DNA of 16,123 nucleotides. Origin: a virus. Taxonomy: Duplodnaviria > Heunggongvirae > Uroviricota > Caudoviricetes. Of the stretch, positions 1 through 15,065 are shown piece by piece. Where the stretch lies: positions 1 through 16,123 of IMG/VR virus record IMGVR_UViG_2558860288_000003. One strand, given 5' to 3'. Made by a program: the position numbers and the translations under genes. The notes under the pieces were generated by a model. The model worked only from the letters and a program-made list of their open reading frames with translations. It ran no database searches and was not told the DNA's origin. Numbering within the stretch: the first letter of the stretch is position 1; every line of letters begins with the position of its first letter.

Positions 1-216
1 AACACCCTCTGCCCAGGCGGCGTATTTCGGCAGCAGCTCCACCTTGATTTCCGCTTTTTTGACCGTGGACTGAACGCCCTTGAGACGGCGGCGGTCTTCC
101 GCCAGTTGCAGCAGCATCAGGTCATAGCCCGATGCGTGGCGAACACTGCCGCCCTCGCGGGCGGCCTGTTCAGCCTGAACGCGCAGGCGATGCTGCCGTG
201 CGGGACTCAGGCTCAT
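1..216 (-). CDS. Terminase small (endonuclease) subunit, P2 gpM family; N-terminal 72 codons only, gene runs off the window
   Basis: Minus-strand ATG at 216-214. The translation MSLSPARQHRLRVQAEQAAREGGSVRHASGYDLMLLQLAEDRRRLKGVQSTVKKAEIKVELLPKYAAWAEGV matches the N-terminal pattern of P2 gpM as I remember it (SPAQRH..RV, RHA, ML..LA.D.R.LK, ELLP, W..GV). A TAA of the preceding in-frame reading lies 3 nt upstream, as at the P2 N/M junction. Confidence 0.7.
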   Translation of the reverse strand, partial: MSLSPARQHRLRVQAEQAAREGGSVRHASGYDLMLLQLAEDRRRLKGVQSTVKKAEIKVELLPKYAAWAEGV

Positions 217-219
217 GGA

Positions 220-420
220 TTACGCTCCGGTTTCGGCTGCGGCGGCGCTGAAATCACCAATCTGGATGTTTTCCACCAGTGCGGCGCAGCGGTAGTCCTC
301 AACCACATAGGCTTCATTAACGGATTCAAAGTTTTCAATCCGGTCACGTTTCGGGTTGTCGATAACTGAACGGCGGCGGGTGTCTTCCTGCCAGTAGATG
401 GACAGGTCAACGAAGCCGAC
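220..420 (-). pseudogene. Major capsid protein (P2 gpN family) C-terminal remnant of about 66 codons with no start codon
   Basis: The minus-strand frame that ends in TAA at 222-220 reads VGFVDLSIYWQEDTRRRSVIDNPKRDRIENFESVNEAYVVEDYRCAALVENIQIGDFSAAAAETGA. This resembles the remembered gpN C-terminus (LSIYY..RRVI.ENPK.DR.EN.ES.N..YVVEDY...LVE.I..GDFS). It is bounded upstream by an in-frame stop at 421-423, contains no Met, and its 5' end overlaps the terminase reading frame. Confidence 0.5.
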
Positions 421-528
421 TTAAACCCTAACGTCGCCAACCGCAACAAAGGCCCGCGCCGTCAGCCGGAAAAGAATGTCTTCACCGATGAACAGATTGA
501 GAAGCTGGAAGAAATCTTCCATTCCTCC

Positions 529-1866
529 ATGTTCAACTACCAGCGCCACTGGTGGGAAGCCGGAAAAACCAACCGCATCCGCAACCTGCTGAAGTCACGC
601 CAGATCGGCGCGACCTTCTATTTTGCCCGTGAAGCCCTGATTGACGCTCTGCTTACCGGACGTAACCAGATTTTTCTTTCCGCCAGCAAGGCACAGGCCC
701 ACGTCTTCAAACAGTACATCATCGACTTTGCCAAAGAAGTGGAGGTGGAGCTGAAAGGCGATCCGATGGTGCTTCCCAACGGGGCCACACTGTATTTCCT
801 CGGCACCAATGCCCGCACGGCCCAGAGTTACCACGGCAACCTGTATCTGGATGAATATTTCTGGATACCGAAATTCCAGGAGCTGCGCAAAGTGGCTTCT
901 GGTATGGCTATTCACAAGAAATGGCGACAAACCTATTTTTCCACGCCATCCAGCCTGACACACAGTGCTTATCCGTTCTGGTCCGGTGCACTGTTCAACC
1001 GTGGGCGCAACAAAGCCGATAAGGTGGACATCGACCTGTCCCACAGCAATCTGGCCCCCGGCCTGCTGTGCGCAGACGGGCAATACCGCCAGATAGTCAC
1101 CGTGGAAGATGCGGTGCGCGGCGGCTGCAACCTGTTCGACCTTGACCAGTTGCGCATGGAGTACAGCCCGGACGAATACCAGAACCTGCTGATGTGCGAG
1201 TTTGTGGACGATCTCGCGTCCGTGTTTCCGCTCAGCGAGCTGCAGGCGTGCATGGTGGACAGTTGGGAAGTCTGGACCGACTTTCATGCTCTGGCCCTGC
1301 GCCCGTTTGGCTGGCGCGAAGTGTGGATCGGTTATGACCCGGCAAAAGGTACGCAGAACGGCGACAGTGCCGGATGCGTGGTGGTGGCACCGCCAGCCGT
1401 GCCAGGCGGTAAGTTCCGCATTCTTGAGCGTCACCAGTGGCGCGGGATGGACTTCCGCGCCCAGGCTGACGCCATCAAAAAACTGACCGAACAGTACAAC
1501 GTGACATACATCGGCATCGACTCAACTGGCGTCGGCCACGGGGTTTACGAGAACGTGAAAGCATTCTTTCCTGCCGTCCGGGAGTTTGTCTACAACCCCA
1601 ACGTTAAAAACGCCCTGGTACTCAAGGCCTACGACATTATCAGCCACCGCCGTCTGGAGTTTGACGCCGGACACACCGACATAGCGCAGTCATTCATGGC
1701 AATCCGTCGCGCCACCACCGCCAGTGGCAACCGCCCGACCTATGAAGCCAGCCGCAGCGAAGAAGCCAGCCACGCCGATCTGGCCTGGGCAACGATGCAC
1801 GCACTGTTTAACGAACCGCTGCAGGGCGAATCCGCCAATACCAGCAATATTGTGGAGATTTTTTGA
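529..1866 (+). CDS. Terminase large (ATPase) subunit, P2 gpP family; apparently N-terminally truncated
   Basis: The 445-aa ORF contains WWEAGKTNRIRNLLKSRQIGATFYFAREA and an acidic-residue-rich nuclease-like C-terminal half typical of P2-type large terminases. The frame stays open upstream to a TGA at 367-369 with protein-like sequence (LNPNVANRNKGPRRQPEKNVFTDEQIEKLEEIFHSS) but no start codon. The stop TGA overlaps the portal ATG. Confidence 0.8.
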   Translation: MFNYQRHWWEAGKTNRIRNLLKSRQIGATFYFAREALIDALLTGRNQIFLSASKAQAHVFKQYIIDFAKEVEVELKGDPMVLPNGATLYFLGTNARTAQSYHGNLYLDEYFWIPKFQELRKVASGMAIHKKWRQTYFSTPSSLTHSAYPFWSGALFNRGRNKADKVDIDLSHSNLAPGLLCADGQYRQIVTVEDAVRGGCNLFDLDQLRMEYSPDEYQNLLMCEFVDDLASVFPLSELQACMVDSWEVWTDFHALALRPFGWREVWIGYDPAKGTQNGDSAGCVVVAPPAVPGGKFRILERHQWRGMDFRAQADAIKKLTEQYNVTYIGIDSTGVGHGVYENVKAFFPAVREFVYNPNVKNALVLKAYDIISHRRLEFDAGHTDIAQSFMAIRRATTASGNRPTYEASRSEEASHADLAWATMHALFNEPLQGESANTSNIVEIF

Positions 1867-2894
1867 TGGGAAAGAGTAAGAAGAACCGCGCTGCGGCGAC
1901 GAAACAGATCCAGCTTAAAAGTCAAACTACAGCCGAAGCATTCAGCTTCGGCGATCCCGTTCCTGTTCTGGACCGCCGTGAACTGCTGGACTATGTGGAA
2001 TGCGTACAGATGGATCGCTGGTATGAGCCGCCTGTGAGTTTCGACGGACTGGCGCGAACCTTCCGCGCCGCCGTGCATCACAGTTCACCAATTGCGGTGA
2101 AATGCAATATTCTGACCAGTACCTACATCCCTCACCCGCTGCTCAGCCAGCAGGCTTTTTCACGTTTTGTGCAGGACTATCTGGTATTTGGTAACGCCTA
2201 TCTGGAGAAACGCACGAACCGGTTCGGTGAAATTATCGCTCTTGAGCCTGCCCTGGCAAAATATACCCGACGCGGGTTAGACCTGGATACCTACTGGTTT
2301 GTGCAATACGGTATGACCACGCAACCGTATCAGTTCACGAAAGGCAGCATTTTTCATCTGATGGAACCAGATATCAACCAGGAGATCTACGGCCTGCCCG
2401 GTTATCTTTCTGCCATTCCGTCAGCCCTGCTCAACGAGTCCGCCACGCTGTTCCGCCGTAAGTATTACATCAACGGCAGCCATGCAGGCTTCATCATGTA
2501 CATGACCGACGCCGCGCAGAACCAGGAAGATGTAAACAATCTCCGTAACGCGATGAAAAGCGCCAAAGGTCCAGGCAACTTCCGCAACCTGTTTATGTAC
2601 TCGCCTAACGGCAAAAAAGACGGGCTTCAGATTATTCCTCTGTCAGAAGTCGCGGCAAAGGATGAATTTTTGAATATCAAGAACGTGAGCCGGGATGACA
2701 TGATGGCAGCACACCGAGTGCCGCCGCAAATGATGGGGATAATGCCGAATAATGTTGGGGGATTTGGGGATGTGGAGAAGGCTAGTAAGGTTTTTATGCG
2801 TAATGAATTGATACCGCTACAAAACAGAATAGAAGAACTCAATAAATGGCTCAAAGATGACATAATAAAATTCATGCCATACAGTTTCATATAA
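1866..2894 (+). CDS. Portal protein, P2 gpQ family
   Basis: The ORF is about 342 aa from the ATG at 1866 (the ORF track began at an in-frame TTG at 1863). Size and position immediately downstream of the terminase ATPase gene match the P2 P-Q operon, with a TGATG overlap and GGAG upstream. Confidence 0.8.
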   Translation: MGKSKKNRAAATKQIQLKSQTTAEAFSFGDPVPVLDRRELLDYVECVQMDRWYEPPVSFDGLARTFRAAVHHSSPIAVKCNILTSTYIPHPLLSQQAFSRFVQDYLVFGNAYLEKRTNRFGEIIALEPALAKYTRRGLDLDTYWFVQYGMTTQPYQFTKGSIFHLMEPDINQEIYGLPGYLSAIPSALLNESATLFRRKYYINGSHAGFIMYMTDAAQNQEDVNNLRNAMKSAKGPGNFRNLFMYSPNGKKDGLQIIPLSEVAAKDEFLNIKNVSRDDMMAAHRVPPQMMGIMPNNVGGFGDVEKASKVFMRNELIPLQNRIEELNKWLKDDIIKFMPYSFI

Positions 2895-2899
2895 AACTA

Positions 2900-2920
2900 A
2901 GGGCCGAATACCTCGGCCCT
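2900..2920. terminator. Stem-loop between the convergent portal gene and cargo gene X
   Basis: AGGGCCGA-ATACC-TCGGCCCT forms a perfect 8-bp stem with a 5-nt loop. On the minus strand it is followed by TTAGTTTTAT, so it is a plausible intrinsic terminator for gene X and possibly also for Q. Confidence 0.45.
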
Positions 2921-2925
2921 CTACA

Positions 2926-4131
2926 TTAAGATTTATGGCTAAAGAGTATACCTGTAACAGAACGTTGATAGGCATCAAGCTTCTCTTGCCTCTGCTTAAA
3001 TTTAGATTTGATATCACTAATACTCGGAATACCTATTACTCCAAGGCCTGCACTTAACGCCGTTAAAGTAGTATTGCCAGTCAGCGCTCCAGCAATTGCT
3101 ATAGCACCATTTGCGATACATGGTAGGACATCTAGTCCGTAAATTCTCAATTTCTCTTTTTGGGCTTTTGCAAGAATCCTTTGATGTTCAATAAAAGCCC
3201 GGTCTACATTATCAATTACTTTTTGCGTTGTCCTCGAAAAGCTCTCTGCCGAAGAATTGATTAAAGAGTCAACACCATTTGATAAGATGGATCTTACATC
3301 CTCCATCAATTTGTTACGTCTCAACTCAATTATTTTATTGACCGGTACATTTCCTAACCATGAAAAACCATCTTGCATACCAGCAGATAACGCATGAACC
3401 ATATGCAAATTTTTTAGTTCAATATCATTGACATCAAAATTAAGAGATTCGTACTCAATAAGCCAAGTATAATAGAGCCAAGATGTGTCTGCATTTATAT
3501 ATGGAGTACTACCAAGTTCTTGTGCATTACATTTTGCTGAATAGGCTTGCGGCATTCTTCCAATGCAGGAAAGGAAAACCTCCATTCCAGCATGATCACC
3601 AACAAGATTACGTGATATTCTTTTTTTATCAGATAGTAGTTTTTCTAATTGAGTTTTTGGATTTAGCCCCCATGCTGTATCAAAAATAAGTCTATCTGCT
3701 CTCTTAATATTTTTAAGAACAGCATCAATATCATTCATCGAATAACTAAAATCTCGAAATTCATCGTAGCTTTCGAACCGTCGATCATAGAGATATTGCG
3801 CATGAGTCAGAGCATAAGGCTCACAAAAACTCATCAAATTTTTTTTGCTCTCAGTTTCAAAATCTCTTCTATCCGGCAAAATTAATACTATTGCTGGCTC
3901 TATATCTTCAAGCGCTACTTCTTTATATGTCATACATGTTAGGACATGCTTCAGAAGTATCCTTGTAAACTCAGCCTTATCTGACTTTTCATAGAGACGA
4001 CCGACTCTTAATATAGGACATGGAAGTGAAATAGTATCAACATACAACCCTGCAATAGAGACAGCATTCTCATCAAATGCAGGAAATAAGTCACCAGAAA
4101 AATTAGCTTTAAACTGAGAACCATCCTGCAA
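2926..4131 (-). CDS. Uncharacterised protein, C-terminal ORF of split gene X (candidate defence / abortive-infection effector)
   Basis: The 401-codon ORF in the track starts at a TTG. The same frame stays open and protein-like for 40 more codons upstream, to a stop at 4252-4254 (SIKFFSQQEEYVKQIEDIFPELYNQVIEFWQVTSDIGVIH), with no ATG. The C-terminal region has a hydrophobic Gly/Ala-rich stretch (LPCIANGAIAIAGALTGNTTLTALSAGLGVIGIPSI). The gene is strongly AT-rich by eye. Confidence 0.6.
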   Translation of the reverse strand: MQDGSQFKANFSGDLFPAFDENAVSIAGLYVDTISLPCPILRVGRLYEKSDKAEFTRILLKHVLTCMTYKEVALEDIEPAIVLILPDRRDFETESKKNLMSFCEPYALTHAQYLYDRRFESYDEFRDFSYSMNDIDAVLKNIKRADRLIFDTAWGLNPKTQLEKLLSDKKRISRNLVGDHAGMEVFLSCIGRMPQAYSAKCNAQELGSTPYINADTSWLYYTWLIEYESLNFDVNDIELKNLHMVHALSAGMQDGFSWLGNVPVNKIIELRRNKLMEDVRSILSNGVDSLINSSAESFSRTTQKVIDNVDRAFIEHQRILAKAQKEKLRIYGLDVLPCIANGAIAIAGALTGNTTLTALSAGLGVIGIPSISDIKSKFKQRQEKLDAYQRSVTGILFSHKS

Positions 4132-4205
4132 ATGTATTACACCAATATCGGATGTTACCTGCCAAAACTCTATTACCTGATTATATAACTCAGGAAAAAT
4201 ATCTT

Positions 4206-4598
4206 CTATTTGCTTAACATATTCTTCTTGTTGAGAAAAAAACTTGATGCTTTATGTGGCGTTGCATTAGTTTTTTTCATCAGATAAAACAACTCGCCAA
4301 AATTACTAAAAAGAATATTAAAGTAAGAACTTTGCAAGTCCTGAATAGAGTATTTGTTTTTTATATCTTCTCTTTCTAAAAAGTGATTAACCGCTGCTCC
4401 CATAGCCCTTATTCTGCCATCAACAGTAGAAGGGTCAACTTTACCATCCTGTCGCAGCCTTATTCTTTTAAAACTTTCAATAAAACCTTCTACAAGATGA
4501 TGAGCTATTTTTAGTTTTCCCGCTTCCAGTTGTTGCTTAATGAGAAAAACACGCTCAGTTAAATCATCTACATATTCCTCATCTTGATATTTTTCCAT
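4206..4598 (-). CDS. Uncharacterised protein, N-terminal ORF of split gene X
   Basis: ATG at 4598 with a GGAG 5 nt upstream (ttaatGGAGcgtttATG). The 130-codon ORF ends shortly after a T7 homopolymer (plus-strand A7 at 4236-4242). One extra T would fuse it in frame to ORF 2926..4131. Confidence 0.55.
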   Translation of the reverse strand: MEKYQDEEYVDDLTERVFLIKQQLEAGKLKIAHHLVEGFIESFKRIRLRQDGKVDPSTVDGRIRAMGAAVNHFLEREDIKNKYSIQDLQSSYFNILFSNFGELFYLMKKTNATPHKASSFFLNKKNMLSK

Positions 4599-4706
4599 AA
4601 ACGCTCCATTAAAATATTTAATAATGCATATAAGAATAGTTAATAATATTTACAGTAACTATATCACATTAGATCCAGATTGTTACACTGTTGCGCGCGC
4701 TCGTAT
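4599..4706 (-). promoter_or_regulatory. AT-rich upstream region of gene X (putative promoter)
   Basis: About 100 bp of very AT-rich non-coding sequence immediately upstream of the gene X start, with several TATA-like hexamers. No -35/-10 pair could be assigned with confidence. Confidence 0.3.
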
Positions 4707-4718
4707 CCCCGCCACGCC
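4707..4718 (-). other. cos-like motif: GGCGTGGCGGGG on the minus strand, matching the first 12 nt of the 186 cohesive end as remembered
   Basis: The plus strand reads CCCCGCCACGCC. The remembered 19-nt cohesive ends are GGCGTGGCGGGGAAAGCAT (186) and GGCGAGGCGGGGAAAGCAC (P2). Here the first 12 nt match 186 exactly and 3 of the remaining 7 also match (about 15/19). Orientation and position (between the A/tum side and Q) fit a cos site. Confidence 0.4.
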
Positions 4719-4767
4719 TGCTCGCTTTGTGTAGTGGTTTTCATGCAGGTGCATGACATAAGCAAAA

Positions 4768-4787
4768 GCCCGCCAGAACTGGCGGGC
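4768..4787 (-). terminator. Hairpin GCCCGCC-AGAACT-GGCGGGC followed on the minus strand by TTTTGCTT
   Basis: Perfect 7-9 bp GC-rich inverted repeat. On the minus strand a T-run follows it, so it is a possible second terminator or structured element in the cos-proximal non-coding region. Confidence 0.35.
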
Positions 4788-5003
4788 CTGCATCAAAACG
4801 ATCCTCAAACGATCATGCGTTCTCATGCAGCATAGTCATGCACGGATGAGAGAAATGAATGCGCGTATCCAAATGCCCGTTTGAAAAACGCAGATGAACT
4901 AAAAAAGCTTAAGGTCTACTATGAGCGAGAAACGGACATTTAATTTTCGAGTAGTGGAAATCGAAGCCAGTACCTGCCGGAGCCATAGTATCGAAACCAC
5001 GAA

Positions 5004-5031
5004 CAATAAAAAGCCTGGAAATATCCAGGCT
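5004..5031 (-). terminator. Intrinsic terminator downstream of the qor-like gene
   Basis: Stem GCCTGGA / TCCAGGC (7-8 bp) with a 4-nt loop. On the minus strand it is followed by TTTTTATTG, and it lies about 37 nt past the qor stop. Confidence 0.55.
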
Positions 5032-5066
5032 GCGCAAGACTCATTTATAGAATGCTGCGGTAAGGA

Positions 5067-6059
5067 TTACTCAACGGTCACAACTATTTTGCCGACCTGT
5101 CCATTGGACTCCATATAGCGCTGGGCGTCTGCAATCTCTTCGAACGGGAACGTCTTATCGATGACCGGCTTCAGTTTGCCGACTCGCAAGCCTTCTGTGA
5201 TAAAGGATTTTGCGCGCGCCATTTTTTCAGAGTCCGTCGTGATTTCAAACAGCTCATATCCACGCAGGGTGAGATGCTTACCGAGAATATCAAATACAGG
5301 CACAAGCATGTCACGGCTATCGAGCGCGCCGTACTGGAAAAACATACCCTGTGGTGCCATCACCTGCGTCAGTTTTGCCACGTCCGGCCCACCGACGGGA
5401 TCAAAAACAATATGGGCACCTGCGCCATCTGTTGCACGACTGATTTCAGCAACCATATCCTGCTCCGCAGTAGCAATGACGGCGGCTGCGCCAGCTTTAA
5501 GGAGCATTTCGCTTTTTTCAGAGGTCCGTGTGAGTGCAATTGGGTTTGCACCCAGCATGTTAGCAATCTGTATGGCAGCCAGACCCACGCTGCTTGATGC
5601 TGCGCGGATCACGACATTCTGACCAGCCTGAAGGTTGCCATACTCAACCAGCGCACCATAAGCGGTGACATACATCATCCAGCTTGCGGCGGCTTCCTCG
5701 AATGAAAGGTTTTCAGGATGCTTTACGACAGCATGAACCGGTGCGTTGACCACTTCACCATACATGCCGTATTCATTAAACATAAATGAAGGGATCACGC
5801 TTACCCGATCTCCAGTGGTAAACTCATCTACATTCTCACCTACTGCCTGTACAACGCCGGCCGCTTCATAACCAAGACGTGCCGGAAATTCCGGCTCAAT
5901 AACATATTGGCCGTTGCGGTACATGATTTCTGCACGGTTGATACCTATCGCATGTACGCGGATCTGCACTTCACCCGCTGTCGGTGCAGGCACCTGCACA
6001 TCAACAACTTCCAGCACTTCCGGGCCACCGGTGCGGTTAAAGGTAATAACTTTAGACAT
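5067..6059 (-). CDS. NAD(P)H:quinone oxidoreductase-like enzyme (medium-chain dehydrogenase/reductase superfamily)
   Basis: The translation MSKVITFNRTGGPEVLEVVDVQVPAPTAGEVQIRVHAIGINRAEI... has the typical quinone-oxidoreductase N-terminus and a Rossmann-type glycine-rich segment (VVIRAASSSVGLAAIQIA). ATG at 6059 with a GAGAG SD; the track start at 6065 is a TTG. Confidence 0.85.
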   Translation of the reverse strand: MSKVITFNRTGGPEVLEVVDVQVPAPTAGEVQIRVHAIGINRAEIMYRNGQYVIEPEFPARLGYEAAGVVQAVGENVDEFTTGDRVSVIPSFMFNEYGMYGEVVNAPVHAVVKHPENLSFEEAAASWMMYVTAYGALVEYGNLQAGQNVVIRAASSSVGLAAIQIANMLGANPIALTRTSEKSEMLLKAGAAAVIATAEQDMVAEISRATDGAGAHIVFDPVGGPDVAKLTQVMAPQGMFFQYGALDSRDMLVPVFDILGKHLTLRGYELFEITTDSEKMARAKSFITEGLRVGKLKPVIDKTFPFEEIADAQRYMESNGQVGKIVVTVE

Positions 6060-6208
6060 ATTCAACTCTCTTCAGTTAAAGGCACACCTTCAGAATAATG
6101 CCGAAGGGATGCCCGAATCATTTGTGAACAATCTACGTTGTTACGAACACACCAGAAATAGCTGAGAGGGAACTTCAGTATTAATTATCCATTAACAATC
6201 CGCCTGCT

Positions 6209-7099
6209 TCAGCGGATCTGCGTGGCCAGAATATCACTGAACCAGTCGATAAAGACGCGCACTTTTGGAGAAAGGTAGCGCCTGTCGGGATACATCACTG
6301 ACACGGGCTTTGACACCGATGGGTATTGCGGCAGAATCTCTTCAAGAGCGCCGGAAGCAATATGGGGAGCAACGGCATCATAGGTAGCCTGGATAATGCC
6401 CAGACCAGCCAGAGCACAAGAAAGCAGAATATCGGAATTATCAACCAGCAGGCTGCCCGCAGGACGTAGCGAAACAATGCTCCCGTCTTCGATAAACTTC
6501 CATTCCATGACGTCACGACTGTGGTCGCTAAAAAAGTTAATTGCCCGATGTTTATCCAGATCCGCAAGTGTTTCTGGCCGCTCATGCTGCTGCAGGTAAG
6601 ACGGGGCTGCACAGGTAACCATCCGGATGTCACCAAGACGTCTGGATATAAAACTAGAATCTTGAAGCGCCCCCAGGCGGACAAGGCAATCTACGCCTTC
6701 CGTAATCAAATCAGTTTTTTTATCGGAAGAAACCAGCACAACTTCAATACCTGGATACAGTGCCTGAAAATGCCTGAGATTAGGGATCAATATGGAATGC
6801 GCCAGCGCCAGGGGCACATCAAGTCTCAGGCGTCCTCGCGGTGGAAGTGTCGGTGAAAAACTGGCCATCATGTCATTAACTTCGGCCAGAACATGCCTAG
6901 CATGATGATAGAACTCATCCCCTTCAGCAGTAACGCTCAGCTTTCGGGTTGTGCGATAAATGAGTTTTACACCCAGATCATGCTCTATCTGCTGTATCGC
7001 TTTGCTCACAGTGGGGCGATGAATCTGAAGTACATCAGCAGCTTTCGTGAAGCTACCCTGCTCAACAACCTGTATGAAAATATTTAGGTATTCAATCAT
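6209..7099 (-). CDS. LysR-family transcriptional regulator
   Basis: From the ATG at 7099 the protein starts MIEYLNIFIQVVEQGSFTKAADVLQIHRPTVSKAIQQIEHDLGVKLIYRTTR..., the canonical LysR-family N-terminal helix-turn-helix. The rest has a substrate-binding-domain-like size of about 296 aa. Confidence 0.85.
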   Translation of the reverse strand: MIEYLNIFIQVVEQGSFTKAADVLQIHRPTVSKAIQQIEHDLGVKLIYRTTRKLSVTAEGDEFYHHARHVLAEVNDMMASFSPTLPPRGRLRLDVPLALAHSILIPNLRHFQALYPGIEVVLVSSDKKTDLITEGVDCLVRLGALQDSSFISRRLGDIRMVTCAAPSYLQQHERPETLADLDKHRAINFFSDHSRDVMEWKFIEDGSIVSLRPAGSLLVDNSDILLSCALAGLGIIQATYDAVAPHIASGALEEILPQYPSVSKPVSVMYPDRRYLSPKVRVFIDWFSDILATQIR

Positions 7100-7333
7100 G
7101 TTGGCATGCACGTGCTCACCTGTTTTGTAGGCTGTTCAAAACCGACATTGTAAAGTAAACCATCCCAACGACATTATTTCTTTTCGTTCAGATAAGGGCT
7201 TTCTGACTGTCACAATGTCCACTTCTGGCACAAAGCGGACGACCATTTTCAAATGGCCGTCGCATCTAACACCTCGTTTCACTCATTGTTCAACCTTACC
7301 CCCATCAGAAGGAATTCTTTCGGGGGCAACGTT

Positions 7334-7567
7334 TCAGTGTAACCAGCTGTCGTCTTCCCAGACCTGCTGCAGAATTTCCATTACACGTTCCTTATCTTCA
7401 GCCTGTCTTACCCCGCTAAGTTCAATACCATTGGCGCTGCCCTTGCGGATTCGGATAGCTGTTTTTGGGTAGAGGGGGCGCAAATTTCGGTAAAGCTCGG
7501 ATTCAAGTGCTTCTAAAAGCATCTGGCTAATTTTCTGCTCTTTATCGATCATTATTTCAATGCGCAT
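7334..7567 (-). CDS. DinI-family protein (186 Tum C-terminal-domain-like)
   Basis: The 77-aa protein MRIEIMIDKEQKISQMLLEALESELYRNLRPLYPKTAIRIRKGSANGIELSGVRQAEDKERVMEILQQVWEDDSWLH aligns with E. coli DinI as remembered (MRIEVTIAK...ELSRR...VSVRYAAANNLSV...KEDKQRISEILQETWE). ATG at 7567 is preceded by AGGGGA. Confidence 0.75.
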   Translation of the reverse strand: MRIEIMIDKEQKISQMLLEALESELYRNLRPLYPKTAIRIRKGSANGIELSGVRQAEDKERVMEILQQVWEDDSWLH

Positions 7568-7577
7568 AGATTTTCCC

Positions 7578-7766
7578 CTAACAGGTAACGTCCATTGTTC
7601 GGCTGTATTCATGGTTGCGGATTTTCGCCATCAGCTCGTCAGTCAGCTCGGAAACCCACTGGATGGCCAGCCGCTTTTCTTCGTCGCTGCACTCGCTCGC
7701 CGCTACCAGTTTTATGAAAAAATCGATGCGCTGAAGTTTCAATGATTCCAAAAGATAATCCTGCAT
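7578..7766 (-). CDS. Small protein, first gene of the SOS operon (Tum N-terminal-like?)
   Basis: ATG at 7766 with a strong SD (taatAGGAGGgaaaATG); the track start at 7787 is a GTG. The 62-aa product is MQDYLLESLKLQRIDFFIKLVAASECSDEEKRLAIQWVSELTDELMAKIRNHEYSRTMDVTC. Its TAG stop lies 10 nt before the DinI-like ATG, suggesting coupling. Confidence 0.5.
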   Translation of the reverse strand: MQDYLLESLKLQRIDFFIKLVAASECSDEEKRLAIQWVSELTDELMAKIRNHEYSRTMDVTC

Positions 7767-7798
7767 TTTCCCTCCTATTACGGCCACTTACACAAGAT

Positions 7799-7833
7799 AA
7801 CTGTATGTATATACACTGTTTATATATACAGTA
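7799..7833 (-). promoter_or_regulatory. LexA operator(s) / SOS-regulated promoter of the tum-like operon
   Basis: cACTGTTTATATATACAGTA at 7814-7833 is a perfect CTGT-N8-ACAG core and matches 18/20 of the consensus TACTGTATATATATACAGTA. A weaker overlapping box at 7799-7818 (aACTGTATGTATATACACTG) has ACAC instead of ACAG. Both lie 35-65 nt upstream of the operon start. Confidence 0.7.
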
Positions 7834-7922
7834 TAGTACCGATTTCTAAATGTAAAACGCTTTTTTGGACTTCAATAAGAAAGCCCTGATATGAGTCAAA
7901 GACAGGAAATATTTTCGGTGTG

Positions 7923-10316
7923 TCAGTAATACTGCCGCCACTTGTCATCCTCACGCAGCCGCCCGTTCTGGTAAAAGATGCGCAGCCCTCCCCCTGACGG
8001 AAGGCTGCCGCCGCGTAAAAGTAAATTCACTTCATACTCACTGCCATCGAACCCTCTGGACCGCAACTCATACTCCAGCTGCAGGCGCTGCTGCTCAGAA
8101 ATATTCTGCTTGTATGCCTTTTTCCGTTTCGGTTTTACCAGCCTGAGCCGGGCAACCAGCTCCCGCCGTTCCTTTTTGCCCATGCCGTGCAGATAGTCCT
8201 GCAGCGCCTTTTCATCCATGGACGTGATACCCGTTACTTCCCCCCCTGTTTGGTTCAAATTTTCAACAGGGGGACAGTTATTGCCACGAGTCCAAGGGGC
8301 GCAAGCGCCCTGGTCGGCTGCCGCCTCCTGAACGTCAACGGCCTTACGAACCATTTTCCACTTCACGGCATGAGTGCAGATCTTGCCCTCTGCAATAGGT
8401 GACCAGATGCCATAAATACGAATGCCGTGATCGCCATAGGCGGTCGGCTCTTCGTTGATTTCATAAGCAGTTCTGATGAGGTGATATTTGCGGGGAACCA
8501 GTACGCCACCCTGCTTCATGATGTAGGTGGCAAAACAACCAGCATCAGCAGCAGCCAGAATGGCATCAAGGCGCGGGTTATCCAGTACCGGCGCACCTGC
8601 TTTTTTGTCCCCCTGTTGCCTTGCCGCCTGACCAGCCAGCAATCGCAGTTCACGGTAAGCCTGACGCCCCGGAATGCCAAAGAAGCGGAATTGCTGAACA
8701 CGATGCAGAGACGCCCAGGCATTAACGTATTCAGCATTATCACGCAGGGATTTCCCCGTTTCCTTGCTGATCTCGCCAGCCAGACCACGCCCGTCAATGT
8801 TCTTACTGATGTATTTCACGATGTAGCTAGTCGGCGTTCCTTTGCGCGGGTTTATCAGCTCAGACTTAAAGCGTGGCCCCGTGTTATTACCCAGCTCCTC
8901 GCGGTCTTCACGGATAGCAAACTTACGCAACAATGCAGTAATGGCGCGGCGGTCTTTTTTGCGCATGAAACACAACAGGTGCCAGTGAACTGTGCCGTCA
9001 TGATGCGGCTCAGCCACCCGCACGCCATACCAGCGCAACCCGGCTTTGTGCATCGCCTTACGAAATGCAGCAAACATGCCGACCAGATAATCACTGCTTT
9101 GTCTTACCGTCGCATTTGTCCAGGTCGGGTTGGGCCTGCCGTTATTTAGCGTGGAATGGAAACGTGACGGACAGGTGATGGTGTAGAAAACGGCGCAGTC
9201 ACCGCGCATTTCCGCGATAAGCTCCAGACCTTTAACACAGGCCATCATCTCATTGCGGCGATGCGCAGGGTTGCTGCTGCTGGCGTTTACCACATCCTCC
9301 ATGTCCAGCGTGTCGCCGTCTTCGTTCACCAGTTCATGAGAACGGAAAAACTCCAGCGACTTACGGCGCTGCTCACGTTTATGCATCACGGCTTCATAGC
9401 TGACATAGGGAGATGCTTTTTTGCTGACCAGGCAAACAGCACGCAACTGCTCTTCCCGCCATTCGCAACGCATCTTCCATAATTTCCGGTACCACCAATC
9501 GGCGCACAACATACGCGCCAGCGAACCCGGAATGAGTTCATAGGGCACGGGTTTACGGCGGTTTCTTTTCCGGCGGAGTTGCTCAAACGCAGGCGGTATG
9601 ACATCCAGTCGCAGGGTTTCTGCTGCCACCTTTTCCCATGTCTTGCGGATTTCTTCTGGCTTAACATCATCGGTGGCGTACAAATCACCACAAGCGGCAT
9701 CAAGACACATACTCATATGCGCAGCGACAAGAGTAGACAGGCGTTTCACCTGATCCTGACTCATTTCAGGCAAGATCAGCAGGCCGTCCAGCCCTTCATG
9801 GCTTGCCATAAAGCGAAAAGAAGTGGATAGCTGACTGTCGCGTACATGCTCCAGTCGTTCCAGACATGGCTTAATCGTCTCACGCAAATAGCGGGAATAA
9901 GCCTTTGGCCTGCCCAGGCTGCTGAAGTATTCAATACGTTGCATCAGCGGCTTGCTGATATGGGAAGGCTGGGCGTTAACGTCCGCCAGTATGACCATGT
10001 CCGGATTAAAACGCTGCTGCTCATGCGCCAGCTTTGCCCGGCTAATAAGCTTATCCTGCTCCATTTCGCGCTGGACAGGATCACGGGATTCATTAAAGAA
10101 ATAACGCTCCCAGACCTGATCACTCAGTGCCTCGCGGCGCAGTTGTTCCTGCTCGTTATCGGCAGCGTACAGAGTGATCAGGTTTGAAAGCGCAGAAACC
10201 GGCGCAACTTCCGCCGGGTCCAGATAAGGGTTAATAGCCTTTTTCGGGCTGTTCCATGAGAATGCTGCGGCGGCCTCGTTAAAGCCGCTGCAGTTGTTCA
10301 TATCAGCATGGCTCAT
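7923..10316 (-). CDS. Replication initiation protein, P2 gpA family (rolling-circle HUH endonuclease)
   Basis: The 797-aa protein contains a His-hydrophobic-His motif ([11 protein letters not shown]) and sits at the P2 gene A position downstream of the early genes. Its start overlaps the dam stop (ATGA). Confidence 0.85.
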
Positions 10317-11170
10317 GCACGCACTCCGTACACGGCAGAACTATCCACGCCACGCGAAGAATCAAATCCCACCCAGCAGCGTGCCCCAGAAACAGCGATG
10401 ATTTCTGTTGCAGATTTACTCTCACCAGCTGCTACGCCGATGCTGCGTTTTGCCTTGATGTAGTGGTGAGTAAAATTGCGATACAGCGAACGGATCAGGG
10501 ATGTGTCACTGTTAGAAACAATGACCGGATGTCCTTCTGATGACCGATGTTCAAGAACGGATGCCAGGTGATACTGGTCATCTTCAGTGAAACCATCAGT
10601 GTGATAGCCGGAAAACGTACCGTCATACGGCGGATCGCAATACACCACATCCCCCGCCTTCAACATCGCCAGCGTTTCATCAAAGCTGGCGCAGATAAAC
10701 GTTGCTCGCTGGGCCTTTTCTGCAAATGCGCGAATTTCTTTTTCAGGGAAATACGGATTTTTATAATTACCGTAGGGAATGTTGAAATGCCCGCTCTTGT
10801 TATAGCTACATAAACCACGGTAACCGTGACGATTGAGATACAGGAAATATACCGCTTTCATGAAATCAGTAATTTCAGTTGAGTAATTAAACTCCTGCCT
10901 TATGTTGTAATAAGCCACCTCCCTGTTTGCGATCTCAAATAAAACTCTGGCGCGAGATATAAACGATTCACAATCAGCAGCAACCTTTTTATAGAGGTTG
11001 ATTAAATCAGGATTAATATCCGCAACAAGATAGCTGGGGTAATCCGTCTCCATCATCACAGCACAGGAACCCGCGAAAGGTTCAACCAGTCGCGGGCCAG
11101 CAGGAAGATGTTTTTTCAGTTCGGACATAATGGTAGTTTTATTACCCGCCCATTTCAGGATGGTGCTCAT
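10313..11170 (-). CDS. DNA adenine methyltransferase (Dam-like, GATC-type N6-adenine MTase)
   Basis: From the ATG at 11170 the protein starts [62 protein letters not shown]... and contains a DPPY catalytic motif ([12 protein letters not shown]). SD AGGAGG; the track start at 11242 lies inside the upstream gene. Confidence 0.85.
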
Positions 11171-11469
11171 ACAGCACCTCCTGCAATAACATATCCTAAA
11201 GCTTCTAATGGGGTTAATGGGCGAATTGATAGCATCACCCATTGTTCTGAAACTGCCATGACGTCATTAACCGGAAGCACATGAGAGATAACAGCGGCCC
11301 ATTCCCTACCCGTAAATACGCCATGCTTCCATTCGCAAAGAGAAAGAACATCACCAACTTTATAGCCACGATCGTCTTTACGAAGTTCAGCCGTCTTTTG
11401 ACCTGCAACCACAGCGTTGAAATACTTAGGTGCAATTTTTAATTGATGGATACGCACTGCCCTTGTCAT
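11167..11469 (-). CDS. Small early protein, ASCH / DUF3850-like
   Basis: From the ATG at 11469 the 100-aa protein starts [41 protein letters not shown].... SD GGAGG. It has ATGA overlaps with both neighbours. Confidence 0.55.
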
Positions 11470-11693
11470 ACAGCACCTCCGTTGTAATGTTTGCCTTTCA
11501 GCTCTACGATTTCCTGGCAGGTAATGCAAAGCTGCACTCCCGGAATGGCGCGGCGTCGTGCTGGCGGAATTGGCGCTTCACATTCAATACAAAGCACGCG
11601 AGACACGCCCGGTGTTTTGGCACGGGCAGCACGAATATGGCGCTGGCGTTCTTCTTCAACGCGCTGCTGTACGAGATCCATTGCATCAGCCAT
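11466..11693 (-). CDS. TraR/DksA-family C4 zinc-finger protein
   Basis: The 75-aa protein has a Cys-x2-Cys ... Cys-x2-Cys arrangement (CIECEAPIP...LCITCQ), typical of the small TraR-like zinc-finger proteins in P2-family early operons. Confidence 0.7.
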
Positions 11694-11926
11694 TAGTGGA
11701 TCTCCTGCGCTTCGTTCTGGATTGCTTCAGCAGTTACACGCAGCAGTTCTGCCGCTTCGACGTGGTTTAGCTGGCGGGATGTGATATGACACGCCAGGCT
11801 ATCAAGGCGAGCTGCCATTGCTTCAGCCCTTGCCCGGCGTTCTTCCAGACGAGCCTCTGTCAGTAAAATATTAAGCCCTGCGTCATCCGGTCCGGTTTTA
11901 GTCGAGAGGGTTTCAATATTACGCAT
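11693..11926 (-). CDS. Hypothetical early protein (small, helical)
   Basis: ATG at 11926 with SD AGGAGA. The 77-aa product is rich in Ala/Arg/Glu. Its stop overlaps the next start (TAATG). Confidence 0.45.
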   Translation of the reverse strand: MRNIETLSTKTGPDDAGLNILLTEARLEERRARAEAMAARLDSLACHITSRQLNHVEAAELLRVTAEAIQNEAQEIH

Positions 11927-11993
11927 AATCAATTCTCCTGAATTTAGATAAAGGGATGCCCGGCGGGTTTACGCCATTAATTTCATTAGTTGG

Positions 11994-12335
11994 TTAATTC
12001 GGCATGGTTAGCCGTCTGGGAAATAAGCTCACCACTGCACGAAAATGATTCATTGCTTTAATCAACTCCCGCTTTTCGTCAGTGGTCAGCTCATTAATGC
12101 TGATGCTATGACGTTCAGCTGGAATTTTTGCCATAAAGAATATGGCAGCCAGTGCCCGTTTATTTTGTTCGCTATTAATATCGCGTGGATCACGCATATC
12201 TTTAATAAACCGCTCAAGCTCTGACTCAATATTCAGACCAAAAACTTTCGCCCTTAACTCCGCAATGTGATTAAGTCCATTCAGGCGTTGACCGGGGCTT
12301 AATGGAACAGTCGCCGCAGCGCCTTCAATAGCCAT
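11994..12335 (-). CDS. Hypothetical early protein (at the 186 dhr position)
   Basis: ATG at 12335 with SD GGGGGA. The 113-aa ORF overlaps the upstream fil-like ORF by 37 nt in another frame. Confidence 0.45.
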   Translation of the reverse strand: MAIEGAAATVPLSPGQRLNGLNHIAELRAKVFGLNIESELERFIKDMRDPRDINSEQNKRALAAIFFMAKIPAERHSISINELTTDEKRELIKAMNHFRAVVSLFPRRLTMPN

Positions 12336-12499
12336 TTGTTCCCCCGTTTTTTCGTAGATAGTTCTGCCAGCAATTCATCTTGTGAACGGCACGGATGCCA
12401 GCGTTTACCATCCTCACCCATGATCCAGCCGTGACCGTAGTGCATTGCCGGGCTTTGTTTAACCAGCAGCGATGCAAATGATGGTTCTTTCGTAAGCAT
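12299..12499 (-). CDS. Small early protein, possibly Fil-like
   Basis: ATG at 12499 with SD GAGGTG; the 66-aa product is MLTKEPSFASLLVKQSPAMHYGHGWIMGEDGKRWHPCRSQDELLAELSTKKRGNK.... The position immediately after cII matches fil in 186. The family assignment is from memory only. Confidence 0.4.
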   Translation of the reverse strand: MLTKEPSFASLLVKQSPAMHYGHGWIMGEDGKRWHPCRSQDELLAELSTKKRGNKWLLKALRRLFH

Positions 12500-12506
12500 A
12501 AGCACC

Positions 12507-13016
12507 TCACAGCAAACCGAATGAAGCACCAAGGCCAGTCATGGTATCAACTGCACTCGCCATCGCCGGGTTAGCCTGTAAACGGGCCTGCAATGAAACA
12601 GCAGCCAGCGCCATCAGTCGTGTTACAGAGTTAATGCTGCTGATAGCATCACGACGACCTGCACTGGTTTTTACATTGCCAGATACCGCACCTGCAGCAA
12701 CACGCCCGATCTCTGCGGTTGCACTCATGACGTAATGCGGCAGTTTCTCTTTTGCTACCTCATTAATCGGTACACATGGCAGGCAGTGAATCTGTGCCAG
12801 AAAACCATCTATCAGCGTTGAATCTTCAGTCAGATCGGTAAGCAGCCAGATTTCTGGCGCATTGAGCTGATGCGGTTGATCTGGGTTGAGTTTGTTTCGC
12901 AGAGTCTGGACATTCATTCCTGCACGTTCTGCCAGCTTCGCCATATTGTGACGAAGTGCAAAAGCTCTACAGGCTTCATCAAAATGCGGGTGTTTGGAAA
13001 TCTTATAATCAAACAT
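12507..13016 (-). CDS. cII: CII-like lysogeny establishment regulator (186 CII family)
   Basis: The 169-aa protein MFDYKISKHPHFDEACRAFALRHNMAKLAERAGMNVQTLRNKLNPDQPHQLNAPEIWLLTDLTEDSTLIDGFLAQIHCLPCVPINE... has the same length and the same start as 186 CII as remembered. SD AAGGGGG. Confidence 0.8.
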   Translation of the reverse strand: MFDYKISKHPHFDEACRAFALRHNMAKLAERAGMNVQTLRNKLNPDQPHQLNAPEIWLLTDLTEDSTLIDGFLAQIHCLPCVPINEVAKEKLPHYVMSATAEIGRVAAGAVSGNVKTSAGRRDAISSINSVTRLMALAAVSLQARLQANPAMASAVDTMTGLGASFGLL

Positions 13017-13048
13017 GCTACCCCCTTAGAAAGTTCTCATAATTGAAC

Positions 13049-13291
13049 TTACTTACCAACAATGACGCGGAAGTTGGAATGACCGAGGGATTCACGGACC
13101 TGATCGGTTTTGTACATTAAATAACGCAGGCTTACGCGGCCTTTGTTTTTTTCTTTCTTGACCATGTATTTAGCAAGCTGACCATGGTGAATTTTTTGAT
13201 ACACGGAGCCGCGGGAGATACCTTCCCATTCCGCGAACTCTGCAGGCGTAGCCATCTCTTTTGGTACACGAATTGAAATATCAGTACTCAT
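13049..13291 (-). CDS. Apl/Cox-like excisionase-repressor, first gene of the lytic operon
   Basis: 80-aa basic protein, divergent from cI and immediately upstream of cII. It has a helix-turn-helix-like segment (ATPAEFAEWEGISRGSVYQKIHHGQL). Confidence 0.6.
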   Translation of the reverse strand: MSTDISIRVPKEMATPAEFAEWEGISRGSVYQKIHHGQLAKYMVKKEKNKGRVSLRYLMYKTDQVRESLGHSNFRVIVGK

Positions 13292-13407
13292 AGTGCAGTA
13301 TCTCTTAGTTTGGTTTCGTTTTATCTTGTTTTATGTGGTTTGGTTTTGCTTTTCAAACCATAAATGGATATTGGGATCACTTTTTATATACGTCAAGGGG
13401 TTTGATT
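13292..13407. promoter_or_regulatory. Divergent lytic/lysogenic promoter-operator switch region
   Basis: 116-bp AT-rich intergenic region between the divergent apl-like and cI-like genes. It has repeated TTTGGTTT motifs (around 13310 and 13339) and an inverted repeat GGTTT-N8-AAACC around 13340-13357. Confidence 0.5.
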
Positions 13408-14040
13408 ATGAGTTTGATCAAGGCGGGAAATGATAGTGGTGGGCGCGATGCAATTAACAGGCTTATTAAGGCTTACAACTTCAGCTCACGACAGCAGCTC
13501 TGCGAACATCTGGAGGTATCCAAAAGCACTATGGCTAACAGATACTTAAGGGATAGCTTTCCTGCCGAATGGGTAATTCAATGTGCCCTTGAAACAGGAG
13601 CTTCCCTTCTATGGCTGGCTACTGGTCAAGGAGATATGTATGCGTGTGAGAACGAAGAAACAAATCTCAAAAATGAACCTCCCGTCACTGTAAGACCACT
13701 TTCTAAGATCGTTGCTCCTAGCATCAAACGTGTTGAACTGAAGAACGGCGAACTGCAGGCAAGTGATGAAATTCTTCTTGATAGCAGCCTGCTCGATGGT
13801 GACTCATCCAACGCTTTATTTGTTAAAACAGCTAATAATAGCTTTGTAGTGGATACGTCCGTTAAACAAGTCAGTAATGGCTTCTGGTTAGTCGATATGG
13901 ACGGAGTTAAAAGCATCGTCAAAATTGCGCGCATACCCGGAAACAAAATAGTAGTTAACCAAGATGACACTTCATTTGAATGTTCTGTAGATGATGTGGA
14001 AGTCGTAGGACGTGCAGTCAAAGTAATCAAGAACCTCTAA
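13408..14040 (+). CDS. cI: CI-like immunity repressor (186 CI type)
   Basis: ATG at 13408 with SD AAGGGG (the track start at 13333 has no SD and a non-protein-like leader). The 210-aa protein has an N-terminal DNA-binding-like region, sits divergent from apl/cII and lies directly upstream of int. Confidence 0.75.
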   Translation: MSLIKAGNDSGGRDAINRLIKAYNFSSRQQLCEHLEVSKSTMANRYLRDSFPAEWVIQCALETGASLLWLATGQGDMYACENEETNLKNEPPVTVRPLSKIVAPSIKRVELKNGELQASDEILLDSSLLDGDSSNALFVKTANNSFVVDTSVKQVSNGFWLVDMDGVKSIVKIARIPGNKIVVNQDDTSFECSVDDVEVVGRAVKVIKNL

Positions 14041-14043
14041 CTT

Positions 14044-15060: not shown

Positions 15061-15065
15061 TAGAA

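Follow-up and report, generated by a model that had tools for sequence, protein, structure and literature searches.

A LysR regulator and a quinone-oxidoreductase-like gene carried as probable moron cargo in the old/tin slot of an Escherichia coli P2-like prophage

A pair of tandem genes, encoding a LysR-family transcriptional regulator and a quinone-oxidoreductase (qor)-like enzyme of the medium-chain dehydrogenase/reductase (MDR) superfamily, occupies the space between the SOS operon and cos in a P2/186/Fels-2-like (Peduoviridae) prophage, a segment of which makes up the window analyzed here (the whole stretch of 16,123 nucleotides, positions 1 to 16,123 of IMG/VR virus record IMGVR_UViG_2558860288_000003, which runs in reverse relative to the P2 map). 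The space between the SOS operon and cos, the position of old and tin in P2, is termed slot A, and that between cos and the portal gene slot B. The LysR-qor module is an ordinary, widely distributed unit that was copied from enterobacterial chromosomes into this prophage accessory slot, and it is a further instance of a recognized class, the non-defence moron cargo of the P2 cos-proximal hotspot. The reading favored here, with a probability of roughly 0.6, is that it is a self-contained, inducer-responsive quinone/enone-reductase moron with a role in lysogenic conversion, captured once into slot A.

Results

The two genes and their products

The module comprises two open reading frames (ORFs), both identified from the ORF list, Pfam and PDB.

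6209-7099, minus strand (ATG at 7099): LysR-family regulator, 296 residues
5067-6059, minus strand (ATG at 6059): qor-like gene, 330 residues, MDR-superfamily NAD(P)H oxidoreductase of the zeta-crystallin/PIG3/QorA type

The 296-residue protein has the two domains that define a LysR-type transcriptional regulator (LTTR), i.e. HTH_1 (PF00126, residues 7-64, E 1.6e-19) and LysR_substrate (PF03466, residues 91-293, E 4.6e-38), and it matches the PDB entries 3mz1, CrgA (3hhg, E 4e-39) and AphB (3szp) over its full length. A GTG codon at 7111, with AGGTGA ahead of it, is an alternative start and would extend the protein to 300 residues. At curated NCBIfam cutoffs the named LTTR equivalogs YafC, AaeR and TtdR are not reached, the nearest being YafC with 200.8 bits (cutoff 470) and AaeR with 175.3 bits (cutoff 425). 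An ORF at 7215-7472 on the plus strand was considered as a divergent partner gene for LysR and rejected; it overlaps dinI in antisense, has no Pfam match and lies outside the module.

The enzyme carries the Pfam domains ADH_N (PF08240), ADH_zinc_N (PF00107) and ADH_zinc_N_2 (PF13602), and its best PDB match, over the full length, is human zeta-crystallin (1yb5, E 9e-45), with further full-length matches to VAT-1, PIG3 (2j8z) and E. coli QOR (1qor). The combination of a GroES-like ADH_N domain and a Rossmann-fold ADH_zinc_N domain with no zinc ligands places it in the MDR quinone-oxidoreductase group. Since there is no cysteine among its 330 residues, it cannot hold the cysteine-liganded zinc of classical alcohol dehydrogenases (ADHs), and the RefSeq label 'zinc-dependent' is misleading. 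It differs from the characterized zeta-crystallin/PIG3/QorA proteins in its score, which falls below the curated cutoffs both of the best-scoring NCBIfam family, TIGR02824 (PIG3 family; 233.5 bits, cutoff 296.8), and of NF008024 (E. coli-type NADPH:quinone reductase; 155.5 bits, cutoff 348), and in its glycine-rich motif, AASSSVG; because of these scores it is assigned to an unnamed subfamily. From its sequence the enzyme is predicted to be an NADPH-dependent quinone/enone reductase.

These comparisons agree with the original prediction as to the identities and coordinates of both genes, and the chromosomal origin that it had proposed holds as well. Both proteins also have PHROG families, so that similar genes have already been seen in phage genomes. 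In comparison with eight orthologues the ratio of nonsynonymous to synonymous substitution rates (dN/dS) is 0.08-0.14 for LysR and 0.04-0.11 for the enzyme; both genes are under strong purifying selection (0.04-0.14).

The module is an insertion next to cos

The boundaries of the insertion and the phage features that adjoin it are as follows.

4844-7263, no strand: 2.4-kb insertion (slot A), defined against the empty site of related Peduoviridae
7334-7787, minus strand: SOS operon, consisting of a 62-residue ORF and DinI (Pfam for DinI, PHROGs for both ORFs)
7334-7567, minus strand: DinI (Pfam, PHROGs)
7578-7766, minus strand: the 62-residue ORF (orf62), phrog_698
7814-7833, plus strand: LexA box CACTGTTTATATATACAGTA, from a pattern search, upstream of the SOS operon
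4700-4718, minus strand: cos-like 19-mer GGCGTGGCGGGGATACGAG, from alignment to the P2 cosL/cosR 19-mer
4766-4789, minus strand: phage-backbone intrinsic terminator from a terminator scan (10-bp stem, then TTGCTTATGT)

The two cargo slots are separated by a conserved cos block (4685-4843) that is kept in all related prophages and phages. The cos-like 19-mer within it agrees with P2 cos at 14 of 19 bases, and its flanks are similar too; in P2 itself old and tin lie between gene A/orf91 and cosR, and the P2 map together with the cos match bears out the placement of the pair in the old/tin position. In Yersinia phage MLG42 and in the E. coli phage-plasmid p13P477T-2 the flanks of the insertion are adjacent, i.e. 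the site is empty, and homology to empty-site relatives (L017, L018) ends at 4843 and restarts at about 7264-7282. Elsewhere slot A holds a 243-residue gene (Fels-2), a 225-residue gene (the KE58 prophage), or HEPN or DUF2971 genes (other E. coli prophages). The module has the features of gpA-gpQ hotspot cargo, in that it lies between gpA and gpQ and adjoins cos at a site that varies among related phages, and those of a moron, in that it is inserted between genes adjacent in relatives and has its own terminator (5012-5031). The claim that the pair is cargo is upheld by its absence from the empty site, and comparison of the same hotspot in related prophages, which had been proposed as a check, finds an empty site or other cargo in relatives and the same pair in 11 prophages. 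The balanced composition noticed earlier is also confirmed, with a GC content of 0.47-0.53 over the gene pair versus 0.34-0.36 in slot B.

The 11 prophages are those found among the loci read, in independent assemblies from NCBI and Logan; they are distinct E. coli P2-like prophages (L007-9, L012, L015, L016, L076-78, L080, L081) with both proteins between DinI and cos. All 11 have DinI and the 62-residue ORF flanking the module, they are 99.85-99.89% identical to window positions 4700-7400, and both insertion junctions are the same base for base in every one (blastn-short). One of them sits between rcdA and ybjL, with a chromosomal flank that is 100% E. coli. These junctions dispose of the possibility that the window is an assembly artefact joining prophage and chromosomal DNA, which the original prediction had named as grounds for its own refutation and to which the chromosome-like composition and gene content could have pointed: the same join recurs in 11 independent assemblies, contiguous phage DNA flanks it on both sides, and the probability of mis-assembly is considered negligible.

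Since the junctions are identical while the slot-B cargo and the CI/integrase (immunity) modules differ among the 11 prophages, the simplest history is a single capture of the module, followed by spread of the slot-A allele via recombination around the cos block. The insert contains no transposase or integrase, its only ORFs being the two genes, and its junctions show no terminal inverted repeats and no target-site duplication; its identification as a transposon or insertion sequence was rejected on these grounds.

Across loci L007-L016 and L072-L081 the constant LysR-qor allele of slot A is paired with at least nine slot-B contents and several CI/integrase types. The slot-B contents include SIR2_2 with a CbiA/ParA-like ATPase, GmrSD, SEFIR/TIR_2, a 304-residue gene with HIRAN, a 422-residue gene, sets of small ORFs, and others. 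Several heavily deleted related prophages still hold both cargo genes intact.

Regulatory anatomy of the module

The predicted regulatory features of the module are listed in the direction of transcription.

7100-7216, minus strand: conserved upstream region of LysR, presumed to hold its own promoter (17 orthologous loci)
6179-6197, minus strand: LysR-type dyad TGTTAA-N7-TTAATA, of the T-N11-A class (19 aligned orthologous spacers)
6130-6135, minus strand: candidate -10 hexamer TAGATT of a putative qor promoter (spacer alignment)
6081-6113, minus strand: qor leader stem-loop with an 11-bp stem and an 11-nt loop (covariation)
5012-5031, minus strand: intrinsic terminator of qor (terminator scan; 8-bp stem with 5 G-C pairs, 4-nt loop, tail TTTTTATTGTT)

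All close orthologues keep the order LysR, spacer of about 150 bp, enzyme, as does Burkholderia, whose LysR has 52% identity. The co-orientation of an upstream LysR gene with qor, to which attention had been drawn as unusual, is therefore correct as a description of the layout but is not peculiar to the phage copy, being conserved across Enterobacterales and Burkholderia. The dyad is located just past the LysR stop codon, about 125 nt upstream of the qor ATG; its core columns are invariant in 19 of 19 orthologous spacers, and the Burkholderia dyad is a perfect palindrome, ATTGTTAT-N7-ATAACAAT. A T-N11-A dyad near the promoter of an adjacent gene is what would be expected of an LTTR operator, and this is the predicted LysR site. 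The 19 spacers also share an almost unchanged GTAGATTGT some 45-55 nt downstream of the dyad.

The leader stem-loop is supported by covariation: 83% of the cells are paired, versus 33-53% in slid controls, with double changes in 9 of 11 pairs and compensatory changes that span Enterobacterales, and the observed value was reached in none of 500 shuffles. It could stabilize the mRNA, partially terminate LysR transcripts or act as a regulatory element. It is followed by a GAGAG Shine-Dalgarno sequence and the qor ATG. No Rfam match was found at E <= 1 in window positions 4600-7900 or in L021 positions 4600-8100, and a known RNA family was accordingly rejected for the module, its boundary repeat (see below) and the leader hairpin. 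At the other end of the gene, the clean qor terminator that had been described is present as such at 5012-5031. The 117 bp upstream of LysR are highly conserved and travel with the module.

In empty-site relatives the orf62-dinI operon runs directly into the phage-backbone terminator at 4766-4789, a site kept in L017, L018 and L019; here the insertion, in the same orientation, intervenes. Between the stop codon of dinI (7334) and the start of LysR (7099) the scan called no terminator-like site, and given the shared orientation SOS-driven read-through into LysR-qor is possible. The module might then tune prophage induction, being co-transcribed with the SOS operon while the reductase acts on quinone-type DNA-damaging inducers or LysR acts on phage or host promoters. 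Such a role would fit the shared orientation with orf62-dinI, the uninterrupted stretch between dinI and LysR with the native terminator now downstream of the insert, and the LexA box at 7814-7833 (one mismatch to TACTGT-N8-ACAGTA, and weak on its own, as at least one such match occurs in 52 of 200 window shuffles). The argument is, however, purely positional; two hairpins without T-runs between dinI and LysR could reduce read-through, and the internal organization of the module is the same in non-phage contexts, which implies that nothing in it is adapted to the phage. A function in induction is therefore considered highly unlikely.

Distribution outside P2-like prophages

The module is absent from 50,697 phage records and is present in one IMG/VR contig. 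The expectation that such cargo is unusual holds with respect to these records and to complete E. coli genomes (3 of 5,426); it does not hold within the prophage lineage itself, where the module is a fixed allele and it is slot B that varies.

Near-identical copies without P2 flanks occur in E. coli. Strain G3/10 and its relatives have a copy (window positions 4879-7236; 99.1-99.7% identity) in a tRNA-Phe island, flanked by an integrase and an Mrr-like restriction endonuclease, and two different tRNA-Phe loci of the chromosome are occupied in this way. A version with 95% identity is found in GDSC2BY4G and NCTC9041, next to a GIY-YIG nuclease-domain gene, where a lambdoid prophage adjoining paoD has its tail-fibre end. 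The pair is thus found outside P2-like prophages, as the original prediction had asked, but in other mobile elements and not at a conserved chromosomal locus. More distant copies are carried by a Lelliottia IncFII plasmid (90%), where the module adjoins a Tn3-family transposon, by a Pantoea vagans megaplasmid (88%) and by a Klebsiella pneumoniae chromosome (85%). In one-genome-per-species data the pair is present in about 25 Enterobacterales species (ADH 82-98% identical), and beyond Enterobacterales it occurs in Aeromonas eucrenophila (94%), a Neisseriaceae metagenome-assembled genome (84%) and Burkholderia (62-65%), with no P2 genes beside any of these copies. The flanks are unrelated in almost all species pairs. 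Outside phages the adjacent genes mostly serve small-molecule redox chemistry, detoxification or transport, and they include PhzF, an F420-type NADP oxidoreductase (3 loci), MFS, SDR, GNAT, nitronate monooxygenase, disulphide oxidoreductase and UbiD.

The F420_oxidored-type NADP oxidoreductase (about 270 residues) lies downstream of the ADH gene in L020, L026 and L046, which come from three unrelated species belonging to Klebsiella, Rosenbergiella and Aeromonas. The phage copy lacks this gene, whose product may be a functional partner of the module.

The neighbourhoods also bear on whether LysR-qor could be an unrecognized anti-phage or counter-defence system. Many systems in the gpA-gpQ hotspot, where the module is located, are defensive (PMC9122126), the tRNA-Phe island copy is beside a restriction endonuclease, and the lambdoid-end copy is beside a nuclease-domain gene. 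Yet neither protein has a PADLOC match at E <= 0.01; about 25 species place the module among redox, detoxification or transport genes and not in defence islands; at least 1,000 Klebsiella contigs carry an orthologue; the module is built like an ordinary inducible unit for catabolism or detoxification; and the slot that turns over in the manner of a defence slot is slot B, across cos. Identification as a defence system was rejected on the PADLOC result and the mostly metabolic non-phage neighbours, and a defensive role of any kind is regarded as very improbable. The passenger is ordinary and probably detoxifying, not a new phage-defence system.

Boundary repeats and mobility of the module

The ends of the module coincide with a repeated element.

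4874-4937, plus strand: left boundary repeat, with a degenerate half A (4874-4899), a spacer and half B, GGTCTACTATGAGCGAGAAACGGAC (4913-4937), recognized by comparison with full elements in L001, L020, L021 and L028
7217-7240, plus strand: right boundary repeat, half A, GTCCACTTCTGGCACAAAGCGGAC, at the end of module homology

Module homology in many species stops at window positions 4910-4924 and 7229-7242, i.e. at the repeat; for the right end this is so in E. coli islands and at least 10 species. Of the two halves, A (GTCCGCTYCTGGCACAAAGCGGAC) marks the LysR side of the module and B (GTCCGCTNTGAGCGAGAAACGGAC) the enzyme side, and in most chromosomal contexts a full A-spacer-B element stands at each end of the module. 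The halves are 24-28 bp long and each is readable as 11-bp inverted arms around a 6-bp centre, half B as AGGTCCGCTGT-GAGCGA-GAAACGGACAT and half A as ATGTCCGCTYC-TGGCAC-AAAGCGGACAT; this 11-6-11 arrangement can be read as the layout of a recombinase core site. The repeat is also dispersed at unrelated intergenic sites; among 5,426 complete E. coli genomes, 919 have 1-4 copies, none of them in annotated DNA. Three different inserts, namely the LysR-ADH pair, a DUF6650 gene, and a FlxA-like gene with a hypothetical gene, alternate at the paoD/lambdoid site, with their breakpoints at the halves. In E. coli LS4, cargo in a second P2 hotspot, between the tail sheath and tail-fibre genes, is 96.9% identical to the DUF6650 cassette together with its two halves, and the array there reads B-DUF6650-A.B-hypothetical-A.

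Besides the window, the loci in which the repeat bounds this module or other small cassettes include L084 (4146-5947), L086 (1010-1891), L002, L004, L005 and L021; the cassettes are found on chromosomes and plasmids as well as in the second P2 hotspot and at the end of a lambdoid prophage.

It may be that LysR-qor is one passenger of an undescribed Enterobacterales cassette system bounded by two palindromic 24-28-bp sites, in which modules would move among chromosomes, plasmids, islands and prophage hotspots by recombination at these sites, but the proposal is tentative and taken as a whole rather improbable. It rests on the A-B elements that flank the module in many species, the three cassettes at one site and the DUF6650 array. 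No genome was found with the bare repeat at the paoD/lambdoid site, where only alternative cassettes occur, and no literature text was found that carries the motif. Integron attC core sites have the consensus RYYYAAC/GTTRRRY. As far as mobility before entry into the phage is concerned, and taking attC cassettes and Acinetobacter plasmid pdif modules as they are generally known, the likeness lies in conserved bipartite palindromic bounds, in alternative cassettes at one site and in arrays; the repeat differs in resembling neither the attC core nor dif, in that no recombinase is consistently adjacent, and in that the phage-side insertion site in the window is without a repeat. Inspection of the sequence against these familiar consensuses led to rejection of both integron attC and XerCD dif as identities for the repeat, which has no RYYYAAC/GTTRRRY.

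Capture by the phage itself looks illegitimate and not site-specific, because the phage-side target in the window has no such repeat and the insert holds extra bases outside the repeats, 35 at one end (4844-4878) and 23 at the other (7241-7263). The boundary repeat, although collateral to the main finding, is the lead most worth following, and if the cassette proposal is true, prophage hotspots would sample a shared cassette pool.

Other features of the window

The remaining assigned features are those of a P2-like backbone; rightward of the methylase come CII/Fil-type early genes, CI and then the integrase.

529-1866, plus strand: terminase
1863-2894, plus strand: portal (gpQ)
2926-4598, minus strand: slot B low-GC stretch (GC 0.34-0.36)
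7923-10316, minus strand: replication protein gpA
10313-11242, minus strand: Dam-type methylase
14044-15060, plus strand: integrase

The right part of the window is 99.4% identical to the E. coli KE58 prophage. The prophage is defective: about 2.17 kb is missing in comparison with L012 and L008, such that window positions 2-407 are joined straight to 408 onward, and the missing DNA corresponds to the first ~103 codons of the terminase large subunit, the whole scaffold gene gpO and most of the capsid gene gpN.

The gene in slot B (2926-4598, minus strand) has a frameshift at about 4236-4242 that leaves two ORFs, of 130 and 401 residues. An intact 557-residue form is present on more than 250 E. 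coli contigs, the C-terminal part matches the PADLOC model DitB (1.9e-10), and in p13P477T-2 too the annotation gives the gene a frameshift. An inactivated defence candidate is the probable reading, with a homopolymer sequencing error as the alternative.

An ORF at 15023-16123 (plus strand; GC 31%), which overlaps the last part of the integrase gene, is cut off by the edge of the window. PHROGs places it in phrog_17460, a family with no assigned function, and it has no Pfam, NCBIfam or PADLOC match. The same gene terminates the related KE58 prophage, just before ypjA, and it may mark a third cargo position beside the integrase.

Discussion

A proposed course of events

Illegitimate recombination would have placed the two-gene unit once into slot A of an E. 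coli P2/186/Fels-2-like prophage. The LysR regulator, made from its own conserved upstream region, would bind the dyad at 6179-6197 just past its own stop codon and, together with a small-molecule co-inducer (most plausibly a quinone or other electrophile), would activate a promoter about 50 nt downstream. The resulting transcript would begin with the conserved stem-loop and encode a zinc-free NADPH-dependent quinone/enone reductase, ending at its own terminator, so that the lysogen would gain an inducible detoxifying reductase, a case of lysogenic conversion rather than of phage defence. As the insertion parts the SOS operon from its native terminator, the pair may in addition be read through on SOS induction. 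Lysogenic conversion is plausible on this evidence, all of which comes from sequence comparison.

Several results weigh against this course of events. Expression, LysR binding and enzyme activity are predictions, and the enzyme falls under the cutoffs of every named NCBIfam family; its substrate class is a family-level guess. A consensus sigma-70 scan called no promoter for either LysR or qor, including at the TAGATT hexamer; a missing call is not unusual for activator-dependent promoters, and the promoters of the module are accordingly referred to here as putative. The module is rare in E. coli, where besides the 3 complete genomes the exact ADH and LysR proteins occur on 89 and 57 contigs, respectively, of a large contig collection, and in E. 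coli NCTC9041 both genes are frameshifted, showing that the module is dispensable at least there. Finally, the near-identity of the prophage copies fits recent neutral hitch-hiking next to cos equally well.

This last point raises the alternative that the module is a neutral passenger, picked up illegitimately and spread only by tight linkage to the cos block, with no benefit to phage or lysogen. Copies that are 99.85% identical and share one junction pair would indicate a single recent event, and rarity in E. coli, the frameshifts in the NCTC9041 lambdoid copy and the decay of the window prophage itself all fit such a passenger. It is harder to reconcile with the fact that the genes are intact and identical in prophages stripped of many phage genes, with the strong purifying selection across the family, with the complete set of regulatory signals that has been kept, and with independent retention of the module in three kinds of E. 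coli mobile element. Neutral carriage is therefore considered unlikely, though by no means far-fetched, and an inducible reductase moron of use to the lysogen is preferred.

Relation to known systems

The gpA-gpQ hotspot of P2-like phages is known to hold some non-defence cargo, i.e. partition systems and a cytolethal distending toxin (Rousset et al. 2022, PMC9122126). The module resembles old/tin and other hotspot systems in its position between replication/SOS genes and cos and in being an insertion relative to empty-site phages; it differs in consisting of a regulator and redox cargo with no defence signature, and in being a constant allele while the portal-side slot varies. Cargo described as LysR, ADH-domain or alcohol dehydrogenase was not found in the portion of the supplementary hotspot tables of Rousset et al. 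that is available as text, and neither LysR nor an oxidoreductase is mentioned in the main text of that paper or in that of a 2026 NAR (Nucleic Acids Research) paper, the supplements of the latter aside.

Among regulators, the LysR protein is a clear sequence relative of CrgA of Neisseria meningitidis (the 3hhg match), which activates mdaB, encoding a putative NADPH quinone oxidoreductase (PMC2724274); in both systems a LysR gene lies beside a quinone-reductase-type gene with intergenic T-N11-A sites. The differences are that MdaB is flavodoxin-like and not an MDR protein, that crgA and mdaB are transcribed divergently, in contrast to the module with its co-oriented upstream regulator, and that the present pair is known from its sequence alone. 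As to morons, lysogens of Burkholderia phage phi1026b express its LysR and MFS morons (PMC2920897). Like such morons, the module lies between genes adjacent in relatives, has its own terminator and a conserved upstream region, and includes regulator-type cargo; unlike them, its base composition is not distinct from that of the phage, its promoter is predicted, and the same module is found in non-phage elements.

Significance

The old/tin slot, commonly regarded as a defence hotspot, can also house and disseminate an inducible redox/detoxification unit from enterobacterial chromosomes, and because it can carry such an ordinary unit the gene content of the hotspot should not be assumed to be defensive. 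The pairing of one slot-A allele with at least nine slot-B cargoes and several immunity modules shows in a clean natural setting how evolution around cos proceeds by modules. Should lysogens express LysR-qor, the pair would represent a simple case of prophage-conferred tolerance to quinones or electrophiles.

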